Shown in pieces: positions 47,243 to 48,961 of a stretch of 64,000 bases of DNA. How positions within the stretch are numbered: position 1 is the stretch's first letter; each line of letters starts with the position of its first letter. This DNA comes from Bacteroidales bacterium (GTDB lineage Bacteria > Bacteroidota > Bacteroidia > Bacteroidales > VadinHA17), in NCBI GenBank assembly GCA_034002885.1, contig JAVEZS010000001.1, positions 103,654-167,653 of the forward strand, in the 5' to 3' direction. Under the pieces are notes generated by a model. It saw nothing but the letters and a program-made list of their open reading frames with translations, had not been told where the DNA came from and made no database searches. A program made the position numbers and the translations under genes.

Positions 47243-47622
47243 TCCTTCTTTAATAGATTAAAAAGCTCGCCGGCAATTGTAAAAGTATCACTACTGGTTG
47301 ACAGTACCGGGATATGCTCTTCATTGCTTCTTCGTATTGTTTCATCGTCTGGTTTTGCTCCCCTTACGATGATAACGGCGGCAAGGTCCTTCAGCGATGC
47401 TACAGCAACCACATTATGGTGTATCTGCAGGGTGATCCACACGCTGCCTTCCTTTGCATTACCGATAACATCACTGAGAAGGTCGGATACATAAGCTCCC
47501 GAGACTTCTCTTTCCATTCCATTTTCTCCTGATATGACAGAGAGGTTCAGTTCTTTTGCAATATCACATATTTTCATCTTCAGCACCAGTTTTGTTACAG
47601 TTTTTTTCAAGCCTTTCGGCAC
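47239..47622 (-). CDS. DRTGG-domain protein (copy 2)
   Basis: About 112 aa from the probable ATG at 47577 (MKICDIAKEL...). The pattern SDLLSDV...VWITLQ.H.NVVAVA...AVIIVRG is paralogous to the protein at 49370-49735. Its stop overlaps the PHP start in an ATGA. Confidence 0.65.
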   Translation of the reverse strand: MPKGLKKTVTKLVLKMKICDIAKELNLSVISGENGMEREVSGAYVSDLLSDVIGNAKEGSVWITLQIHHNVVAVASLKDLAAVIIVRGAKPDDETIRRSNEEHIPVLSTSSDTFTIAGELFNLLKKE

Positions 47623-48961
47623 CCCAGATCTCTCCGGTAATTTTTGTTGCTTTTTCCTGGCTGAGGAGCTTCTGGTTTATCATCTGCTGCTGCAGAAAGA
47701 TGCAGTGTGATATCTGTGCGCGTCCCTGAACAATATCTTCTGCCAGGGTCTGGCAGTCGGGAGCGCCGCAGGCGCCACAGTCAAAACCAGGGAGAAAACA
47801 CATCAGCCTTCTTTTGCGCTTCATCTTTTTTATTGCAGCTGACATGTTCTCATCAAGCTTTTCTATATTCCGGGGTTCTATGTTGCCAAGAAAGCTGTGT
47901 TCCTTGAGGCTTATATAACCATCTGAGAGTTTCGATGTATTGTTTTCTTTATTCTTCTCAGCTGAGGAAGCCATTTTCCGAAGTCGCTCCACGTTGAGGA
48001 ACCTGTTTCCGGGCATCAGTATGCCACCGGCGCAACCCTCATCGCATGCTCTCAGTTCGAGGAAATCGACGCTGTCGAGTTTGCCGTTCTCGACATTTTC
48101 AAGGATCTCGGTGACATTCCTTATGCCGTCGACCGGAAGGGCTCTCTTTTCCGAATGGACAGTTTCTCCTCTCGTAAGACTCCAGAGTATCCCTGCAGGA
48201 CTCAGAAGATTATCCGTTACAGGCATTTCACTGTCCTCTTCTTCTTTCTGAAGAAACCCTTGTATCTTATTATAAAGGTAATTCATATTTATCACCCCTG
48301 TTATCACGGATTCCGTTTCTCCGACCGGACTCTTTATTGCAGCTATCTTTGCGGCACAGGGCGTTGCGTAGAACAAGCCTATATCTTTCGCATCATTTCC
48401 TTCGGCAAGAAGCTTTTTCCTGTAATAGAGTGCCGACATGTCAATTGGCGGGTTCACCCTCATTATATTATCAACCAGGGATGGGAACCTCACCTGGATG
48501 AGCCTTACGATGGCCGGGCAGAATGATGAAATAAGAGGACGCTGTTTGTTTGTCTGTCTGAACTCCCTGTATGCGTCAAGAACCATATCAATTGTATTCT
48601 CAACCTGGTAGACGTGTGTGAAGCCTGTTTTTCCGAGGGCAGCATATATTGCCGAAACCGGTATCTTGTGGGAGAAAAGTCCTATCAGAACGCTTGGGAT
48701 CAGTATCGCCCTTGTTTTAAATCCAAAAATCATGCTTAGATCGTCCTGTTCAACACCGATTGCTGAAACGGGACATGATCGGTAACATTCTCCGCAATCA
48801 ACGCAGCGGTTTGCAATTATCATGGCTTTTCCGTTCCTGACCCTTATTGCCCTGGTCGGACAGACTGCCATGCAATGAATGCAGCCGGTGCACAGTTCCT
48901 GGTGAACTTTCAGTGCGTGATGAAACCCGGTATCTCTCACCATGTTATTCATGCGGTTCAA
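47564..48961 (-). CDS. HydS-like [FeFe]-hydrogenase homologue (putative sensory): 2x[4Fe-4S] ferredoxin + H-domain + C-terminal Cx2Cx4Cx16C domain, no PAS
   Basis: CTGCIHCMAVCP and CVDCGECYRSCP. Degenerate H-cluster motifs SSFCP, TPCAAK and RACDEGCAGG keep all four ligand Cys. C-terminal CGACGAPDCQTLAEDIVQGRAQISHC. Confidence 0.8.
   Translation of the reverse strand: MNRMNNMVRDTGFHHALKVHQELCTGCIHCMAVCPTRAIRVRNGKAMIIANRCVDCGECYRSCPVSAIGVEQDDLSMIFGFKTRAILIPSVLIGLFSHKIPVSAIYAALGKTGFTHVYQVENTIDMVLDAYREFRQTNKQRPLISSFCPAIVRLIQVRFPSLVDNIMRVNPPIDMSALYYRKKLLAEGNDAKDIGLFYATPCAAKIAAIKSPVGETESVITGVINMNYLYNKIQGFLQKEEEDSEMPVTDNLLSPAGILWSLTRGETVHSEKRALPVDGIRNVTEILENVENGKLDSVDFLELRACDEGCAGGILMPGNRFLNVERLRKMASSAEKNKENNTSKLSDGYISLKEHSFLGNIEPRNIEKLDENMSAAIKKMKRKRRLMCFLPGFDCGACGAPDCQTLAEDIVQGRAQISHCIFLQQQMINQKLLSQEKATKITGEIWGAERLEKNCNKTGAEDENM

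Follow-up and report, generated by a model that had tools for sequence, protein, structure and literature searches.

The window analysed here is a stretch of 64,000 nt from a Bacteroidales bacterium (contig JAVEZS010000001.1, positions 103,654 to 167,653 of the forward strand), and the gene under study, designated HydS-D, encodes a hydrogenase homologue and lies third among ten tightly packed co-directional genes on the minus strand. The initial annotation, made from the sequence alone, had read the protein as a sensory hydrogenase of the group C/D type that passes its signal to separate proteins. On the basis of its sequence, HydS-D belongs to the group D (M2e) [FeFe]-hydrogenases, which lack a PAS domain and are the sister class of the group C 'HydS' enzymes. 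It has the full group D set of cofactor sites, comprising two N-terminal [4Fe-4S] clusters, the H-cluster, and a C-terminal [4Fe-4S] cluster. It was compared with TamHydS of Thermoanaerobacter mathranii (WP_013150113), the only characterised group D member.

The open reading frame (ORF) 47564..48961(-) was confirmed, and it encodes 465 amino acids (aa) when begun at TTG 48961. Because the close homologues (more than 100) and the identical NCBI record MDX9724853.1 (from a Bacteroidales metagenome-assembled genome, named '[Fe-Fe] hydrogenase large subunit C-terminal domain-containing protein') are 462 aa long, the true start is most likely ATG 48952, so placed that the first 8 nt of the gene coincide with the end of the upstream ATPase gene, stop codon included. 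The Pfam search detected two Fer4 domains (residues 19-68), Fe_hyd_lg_C (8.8e-25), and FeS PF04060 (2.1e-12), whereas no PAS domain was found at E <= 0.01, in agreement with the initial annotation; just 45 residues follow the last Cys. The features of the gene, with motif coordinates obtained by codon arithmetic on the translated ORF, are as follows.

47564..48952, minus strand: HydS-D, group D (M2e) [FeFe]-hydrogenase homologue of 462 aa, assigned from its domains, the length of its homologues, and its match to TamHydS
48773..48892, minus strand: N-terminal F-domain with two CxxCxxCxxxCP [4Fe-4S] motifs (C21, C24, C27, C31, C50, C53, C56, and C60 in the 462-aa numbering)
48515..48529, minus strand: H-cluster motif 1, SSFCP; Phe144 at the position of CpI C299 (the proton-relay Cys), and Cys145 as a [4Fe-4S]H ligand
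48347..48364, minus strand: H-cluster motif 2, TPCAAK; Thr197 at the M353 position, Cys199 as a ligand, and Lys202 as the cyanide (CN) contact
48164..48175, minus strand: TRGE (T260 to E263), equivalent to TamHydS S249 and E252, a group-D-specific proton relay beside the bridging amine
48023..48058, minus strand: H-cluster motif 3, ELRACDEGCAGG; E299 equivalent to TamHydS E289, Arg301 at the M497 position, Cys303 and Cys307 as ligands, without GGGQP
47702..47779, minus strand: C-terminal Cx2Cx4Cx16C [4Fe-4S] motif CGACGAPDCQTLAEDIVQGRAQISHC (26 residues) with exact spacing, matched by Pfam FeS PF04060 and containing D391, E405, and D406

Sequence motifs and placement in group D

The three H-cluster motifs were present where the initial annotation had placed them, and the C-terminal segment had exactly the spacing that it had given. 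The motifs TSCCPGW, MPCLAKKYE, and EVMACPGGCIGGGGQP, which it had used for comparison, were likewise found in the group A HydA of the same window (41856..43634, minus strand). BLASTP aligned SSFCP of HydS-D with TSCCP of this HydA and TPCAAK with MPCLAK, and phmmer aligned flELRACDEGCagg with fvEVMTCPEGCisgggqp of PDB chain 7qv7_D, the HydA2 subunit of the hydrogen-dependent CO2 reductase (HDCR). The residues C145, C199, C303, C307, and K202 align with C300, C355, C499, C503, and K358 of CpI. According to these alignments, the listed Cys residues are homologous to H-cluster ligands, and the retention of the four [4Fe-4S]H Cys and the CN-contacting Lys, as well as the replacement of the proton-relay Cys by Phe and of the two Met by Thr and Arg and the loss of GGGQP, were confirmed as annotated. 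The group A pattern (TSCCP, MPC, and ExMxCxxGCxxGGGQP) was absent from HydS-D, which has SSFCP, TPCAAK, and ELRACDEGCAGGILMP. The eight N-terminal Cys are invariant among the homologues, the Cys, Lys, Thr, and Arg motif positions are invariant in 35 close homologues, and the H-cluster Cys and the CN-contacting Lys are invariant in 80/80 genomic loci from several phyla. Such a motif pattern is far beyond chance.

The name group D, or M2e, dates from 2010, and the first characterisation followed in 2019-2020; the criteria for the group include H-cluster binding, slow high-affinity H2 turnover, and carbon monoxide (CO) tolerance. With regard to sequence, its defining features are a pair of N-terminal clusters, an H-domain that lacks the Cys at C299, a Cx2Cx4Cx16C C-terminus, and the absence of a PAS domain (PMC8163306). 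HydS-D shared 38% identity with TamHydS over its full length (432 residues, E 2e-90), compared with 25% (E 2e-29) for a PAS-bearing group C-like Bacteroidales protein and 22% (E 6e-9, BLASTP) for the HydA of the window. The TamHydS sequence was read from the supplementary PDF of PMC6984386 with small optical character recognition errors (434 instead of 435 aa, and doubled G's), and its numbering was reconciled against residue labels in three papers. The group C proxy was the Bacteroidales homologue at L044:18888-20774(-), which bears a PAS domain and lies beside a SpoIIE phosphatase.

A neighbor-joining (NJ) tree was constructed from 197 sequences, including the 80 genomic loci, 111 representatives of 50% identity clusters, TamHydS, two group C-like sequences, and two group A sequences. 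All 80 loci and TamHydS fell into one clade, with groups C and A outside, and in a 46-taxon subset group D was monophyletic in 83/100 bootstraps and the Bacteroidota subclade including HydS-D was recovered in 98/100. HydS-D did not cluster with the PAS-bearing HydS, as the identity comparison also showed. The group C/D label of the initial annotation can be narrowed accordingly to group D, rather than A or C, in a placement that drew on a single reference from the literature for each group, with group B unrepresented.

TamHydS and HydS-D agree in the order of their domains, which is two [4Fe-4S] clusters, H-domain, and Cx2Cx4Cx16C with no PAS, and in the loss of the proton-relay Cys together with a hydroxyl residue (Ser or Thr) at the M353 position. 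Replacement of M353 by Ser or Thr is a group D criterion (PMC8163306), and this position was Thr or Ser in all 80 loci. The alignment further showed that E263, E299, T260, and D275 of HydS-D, the last of which lies 12 residues past TRGE, correspond to E252, E289, S249, and D265, an alternative and group-D-specific proton relay in TamHydS (PMC10407848); E252 was conserved in 79/80 loci, E289 in 80/80, and D265 in 78/80. The group A proton pathway is missing, as A127, M164, and Q133 occupy the positions of E279, S319, and R286, and E130 (E282) is the sole residue of that pathway kept (TamHydS equivalences from PMC11803613). Group-D-conserved charged residues (R30, R32, K35, D378, E392, and D393 of TamHydS; PMC13104023) also have counterparts, with R37, R39, and K42 near the N-terminal clusters and D391, E405, and D406 near the C-terminal cluster.

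The two proteins differ in that the C299 and M497 positions are Ala and Leu in TamHydS but Phe and Arg in HydS-D, and in that HydS-D has His rather than Asp before the last C-terminal Cys and Ile rather than K58. The hosts also differ, being Bacteroidales for HydS-D and a thermophilic Firmicute for TamHydS. The HydA of the window, which shares the H-cluster ligands, the CN-contacting Lys, and a homologous H-domain with HydS-D, differs by TSCCP, both Met, GGGQP, 2Fe-2S and NuoG-type N-terminal domains, and a small-subunit-like C-terminus. An AlphaFold2 (AF2) model of HydS-D was built from a 35-sequence alignment (65-77% identity), and its mean predicted local distance difference test (pLDDT) score was 64.6, with the Fe-S domains below 50. 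At the fold level only, all top-50 PDB matches of this low-confidence model in Foldseek were [FeFe]-hydrogenases. No solved structure of a group C or D enzyme was found in the PDB by phmmer or Foldseek.

Active site and C-terminal tail of the Bacteroidota proteins

The residues at the C299 and M497 positions were split by phylum over the 80 loci, as follows.

Bacteroidota, 45 loci: Phe or Tyr at the C299 position, Arg (one Lys) at the M497 position
Bacillota, Spirochaetota, WOR-3, and Muiribacteria, 35 loci: Ala or Ser (one Leu) at the C299 position; at the M497 position mostly Leu, with Gln, Asn, Ala, and a few other residues in the rest

Further residue combinations at these positions were seen among the metagenomic representatives. 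In TamHydS the two positions (A137 and L291) contact the bridging amine of the cofactor (PMC11803613). The C299 position of group D is described in the literature as 'mostly alanine', and thus the Phe of HydS-D is atypical. No mention of the aromatic/Arg pair was found in the accessible literature, and an earlier description elsewhere is possible. The Phe/Tyr and Arg flanking the bridging amine may constitute a distinct Bacteroidota active-site variant, which may tune the affinity for H2 or lock a signalling state.

A second trait of the Bacteroidota proteins is a conserved C-terminal tail (47564-47701, residues 418-462), of which about 30 residues (IWGxERLEKNCNKxGAEDEN) are extra with respect to TamHydS. 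The tail was absent or much shorter in TamHydS and the other Firmicutes homologues. It may be a clade-specific partner-binding segment.

Operon, conserved cassette, and putative operators

The other nine genes of the operon are listed below in order of transcription, HydS-D being the third, together with the probable control region.

49769..49819, minus strand: probable operon control region, two abutting 17-bp Rex-box-like palindromes followed by a -7 element
49370..49819, minus strand: gene 1, DRTGG-domain protein 1 (DRTGG1), the first gene of the cassette, probable start ATG 49735
48945..49367, minus strand: gene 2, SpoIIAB-like (anti-sigma F/Ser-kinase type) HATPase_c_2 protein whose N, G1, and G2 ATP-binding boxes are intact
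47239..47622, minus strand: gene 4, DRTGG-domain protein 2 (DRTGG2)
46487..47242, minus strand: gene 5, PHP-family phosphoesterase with the conserved metal ligands DLHxH, DHN, PAH, and SDxH
45952..46512, minus strand: gene 6, stand-alone histidine-kinase-type HATPase_c domain without a DHp/His domain
45451..45852, minus strand: gene 7, small thioredoxin-like [2Fe-2S] ferredoxin (HydD-like)
43646..45439, minus strand: gene 8, HydB (NuoF-like flavoprotein subunit)
41856..43634, minus strand: gene 9, HydA, catalytic group A [FeFe]-hydrogenase (NCBIfam 'NADH-dependent [FeFe] hydrogenase, group A6', 904 bits)
41337..41819, minus strand: gene 10, HydC (NuoE-like subunit)

Genes 1-6 overlap or abut. 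The sole sizeable intergenic gap (45853-45951, 99 nt, A-rich) divides the six signalling-type genes from hydD-hydB-hydA-hydC and could contain an internal promoter or a processing site. This arrangement fits previous reports that group D genes lie upstream of the trimeric or tetrameric bifurcating HydABC, with kinase-type genes between (PMC3561251, PMC8163306), and TamHydS is similarly encoded upstream of a bifurcating HydABC and beside a kinase-like ATPase (PMC8163306).

The presence of the neighbouring genes was determined by tblastn in the 80 loci and counted only where the flank sufficed.

DRTGG1: 43/43 in Bacteroidota, 31/34 in other phyla
ATPase 1: 44/44 in Bacteroidota, 33/35 in other phyla
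DRTGG2: 42/45 in Bacteroidota, 28/34 in other phyla
PHP: 41/44 in Bacteroidota, 28/34 in other phyla

The gene order DRTGG, HATPase, HydS, DRTGG, PHP was kept across phyla, with HydABC downstream in most loci. The position of hydC varied, as it lies before the second ATPase gene in Firmicutes, including the TamHydS-type order, and is last in Bacteroidota, where for HydS-D it ends the operon. The first ATPase matched the anti-sigma F factor SpoIIAB (TIGR01925, 1.4e-16; PDB 1TIL). The ATP-binding boxes of both ATPases and the metal ligands of the PHP protein show at least 90% conservation, which makes it probable that these proteins are active. A search of the literature for DRTGG and hydrogenase retrieved no description of the DRTGG/ATPase/PHP cassette; several key papers were inaccessible, and priority is not claimed.

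The two DRTGG proteins have in common a DL(M/L)SDV motif, which was at least 90% conserved in 70-75 orthologues, and the neighbouring SpoIIAB-like kinase may phosphorylate the Ser of this motif. The cassette resembles the SpoIIAB/SpoIIAA/SpoIIE and RsbW/RsbV/RsbU systems in that a small HATPase_c_2 serine-kinase-type ATPase is encoded with a phosphatase and small partners. It differs from these partner-switching systems by the lack of a STAS substrate, a PP2C phosphatase, and a sigma factor, in place of which DRTGG and PHP proteins are encoded, so that functional equivalence is only inferred.

The longer proteins among the 150 best representatives were natural fusions, as follows.

HydS-DRTGG fusion: four clusters (P0155, P0158, P0220, and P0257)
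DRTGG-HydS fusion: two clusters (P0198 and P0224)
HATPase_c_2-HydS fusion: one cluster (P0176)

Several of these fusions recurred in independent assemblies, including one isolate genome, and none of the fusion proteins among these representatives had a PAS domain. Gene fusions are classical evidence of physical association, and the HydS fusions nominate the DRTGG proteins and the SpoIIAB-like ATPase as candidate direct physical partners. No description of the fusions as pointers to partners was found in the accessible literature, and an earlier one may exist elsewhere.

A second, divergent HydC/HydB/HydA-like trio with 28-51% identity to the window proteins was observed about 2-5 kb upstream of the cassette in many Bacteroidota loci (L010-L016, L021, L025-L027, and L044), and it is not present in this window. 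Two related Bacteroidales genomes have, just past hydC of the same operon, genes for a group C-like HydS of the PAS type (628 aa in L044:17711-20774 and 630 aa in L026:17478-20554, both minus strand) and for an adjacent SpoIIE/PP2C phosphatase; therefore, putative sensors of groups C and D flank one HydABC. The group C-like protein of L044 was without a C499-equivalent Cys in an alignment that is uncertain at this position.

The palindromes of the control region, of the form (G/T)TGTTATTTTATTCACA, are GTGTTATTTTATTCACA and TTGTTATTTTATTCACA at 49803-49819 and 49786-49802, respectively. They are followed by a Bacteroidetes-type -7 element (TAccTTTG, 49769-49776), which precedes the probable start of DRTGG1; ATG 49735 was preferred as this start because GTG 49819 falls inside the operator repeat. 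The -7 element was read by eye, and the sigma-70 and terminator scan was uninformative, as Bacteroidota promoters differ. In 24/44 Bacteroidota loci this type of box (TGT[TG]A-N6-T[TAC]ACA) was found in the 200 nt preceding the cassette, at a density of 5.1 per kb compared with 0.037 per kb elsewhere (about 140-fold). The motif resembles the Rex boxes of Thermoanaerobacterium, one of which is predicted upstream of a gene for a 'PHP domain protein' (PMC5886521); this gene may be the PHP gene of an equivalent cassette. These putative operators suggest transcriptional control of the NADH/Rex type, separate from the HydS module.

The palindrome recurs as a third copy, TTGTTATAAAAATAACA, at 56474-56490. 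It precedes pntA (56526-57656) by about 36 nt, and behind pntA comes pntB (58000-59436), the two encoding NAD(P) transhydrogenase; this position of the box would fit a shared redox regulon. A fourth match was found at 39494-39509, within the annotated start of a radical SAM gene. No HydE, HydF, or HydG maturase gene and no Rex gene was found among 20 other ORFs of the window.

Proposed role and alternative explanations

Taken as a whole, the data are best explained by a group D putative H2 sensor whose partners read the signal and adjust HydABC(D), to which we assign a probability of about 0.7. Signalling through separate partners has already been hypothesised in print for group D (PMC8163306, conclusions; PMC3561251, Table 6 footnote), and the same proposal of the initial annotation agrees with it and is supported by the cross-phylum cassette and the natural fusions. 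How group D enzymes transduce their signal was a question raised by Land et al. (PMC8163306), and the interaction partners have been stated to be unknown and their identification critical (PMC13104023).

By analogy with TamHydS, HydS-D would bind a normal H-cluster and turn over H2 slowly and with high affinity. Slow turnover and the alternative proton pathway have been reported for TamHydS (PMC10407848), in which exposure to H2 reduced the H-cluster and an N-terminal cluster and changed the secondary structure (PMC8163306, PMC13104023). Binding of H2 to HydS-D would similarly reduce the H-cluster and one N-terminal cluster and change the conformation. The gene order and the fusions suggest that the two DRTGG proteins and the SpoIIAB-like serine-kinase/ATPase would bind HydS-D and read this change, and that the PHP phosphoesterase would act as the phosphatase opposing this ATPase, alongside a second orphan kinase catalytic domain. 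Together the cassette proteins would form a partner-switching-like phospho-module, the output of which would most likely be adjustment of the electron-bifurcating HydABC(D) encoded directly downstream. As a speculation, control of HydABC is more likely post-translational than transcriptional, because no DNA-binding protein is encoded in the cassette and the Rex-like operators are separate from it. [quoted passage not shown]

Several points weigh against the sensor interpretation. Sensing of H2 in vivo has been demonstrated for no group D enzyme (PMC13104023), and removal of the TamHydS C-terminal cluster, which does not respond to H2, barely alters activity (PMC13104023, a 2026 study). TamHydS catalyses reversible H2 turnover, and thus a metabolic role is possible. 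The cassette encodes no STAS-type kinase substrate, sigma factor, or DNA-binding output, which leaves the partner-switching analogy incomplete. In addition, the bulky Phe/Tyr and Arg by the amine bridgehead may not be compatible with the [2Fe] subcluster, and the low-confidence AF2 model yielded no pocket geometry.

The strongest alternative is that HydS-D is metabolic rather than regulatory, being a slow genuine H2-evolving or H2-oxidising enzyme (a high-affinity uptake or auxiliary module) that exchanges electrons through its N-terminal clusters with ferredoxin or HydABC. The conservation of all catalytic-site ligands and of a dedicated proton relay, the co-transcription with HydABC indicated by the gene arrangement, and the reversibility of TamHydS agree with such a role. 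We nevertheless consider it unlikely, since the reported turnover is orders of magnitude below that of group A (PMC10407848), and kinase-, phosphatase-, and DRTGG-type neighbours, unexpected for a purely metabolic enzyme, occur in nearly all loci and are sometimes fused to it. The kinase-like ATPase was present in 77/79 loci with enough upstream flank, and in some genomes (e.g. L031, L032, and L062) the cassette occurs without HydABC within 10 kb. Less probable still is that the Bacteroidota clade comprises hydrogenase-like Fe-S redox sensors without the [2Fe] subcluster, like eukaryotic Nar1/NARF, with the aromatic residue and Arg filling the diiron pocket. Phe/Tyr and Arg/Lys at the amine-contact positions in 45/45 Bacteroidota homologues, in contrast to Ala and Leu in TamHydS, would fit this explanation, and the small changes A137C and L291M already disturb TamHydS (PMC11803613). 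However, invariance within the clade extends to the CN-contacting Lys and the bridging Cys, to the Pro-Ser of the proximal CN pocket, and to the E263/E299/D275 relay, which is difficult to account for in a protein with no [2Fe] site or proton traffic; moreover, since a bona fide HydA is encoded in the genome, maturases must exist.

Groups C and D share the N-terminal clusters, the loss of C299, and Cx2Cx4Cx16C (PMC8163306), and HydS-D might accordingly be regarded as a group C enzyme whose PAS domain was lost by truncation or mis-assembly. Group C (M2f) HydS enzymes, such as TmHydS of Thermotoga maritima, also share with HydS-D the H-domain, a proposed H2-sensing role, and an association with phospho-signalling genes. 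The proxy protein differs from HydS-D in its fused PAS domain, its neighbouring PP2C/SpoIIE phosphatase, and its lack of the group D glutamate relay, while the partners of HydS-D are DRTGG proteins, a SpoIIAB-like ATPase, and a PHP phosphoesterase. The truncation hypothesis is refuted by sequence distance (just 25% identity to the PAS-bearing Bacteroidales protein), by the tree, in which the group C sequences lie outside the group D clade, and by the 45-residue conserved tail and stop codon common to more than 100 homologues of equal length. A separate group C-like gene, accompanied by a SpoIIE phosphatase of its own, is also found in related genomes, and we regard a truncated group C enzyme as extremely improbable.

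HydS-D adds to a known class, and its reading as a sensor is an established hypothesis recognised from raw sequence. It extends the sole lineage studied biochemically, that of thermophilic Firmicutes, to the abundant Bacteroidales. The sensor interpretation may be extended tentatively to a more detailed model, which we consider possible rather than probable, in which group D is the H2-input subunit of a phylum-spanning signalling machine composed of two DRTGG proteins, a SpoIIAB-like kinase, a PHP phosphatase, and an orphan kinase domain, with the fusions marking direct partners, HydABC controlled post-translationally and transcription controlled by Rex, and a variant active site in Bacteroidota. 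The cassette and the natural fusions provide concrete candidates for the interaction partners, and the differing residue pair at the amine bridgehead serves as a naturally occurring experiment in how second-sphere residues tune the H-cluster. The partial pressure of H2 governs the fermentation balance in anaerobic communities, and a defined H2-sensing module in Bacteroidales, if true, would therefore matter physiologically.

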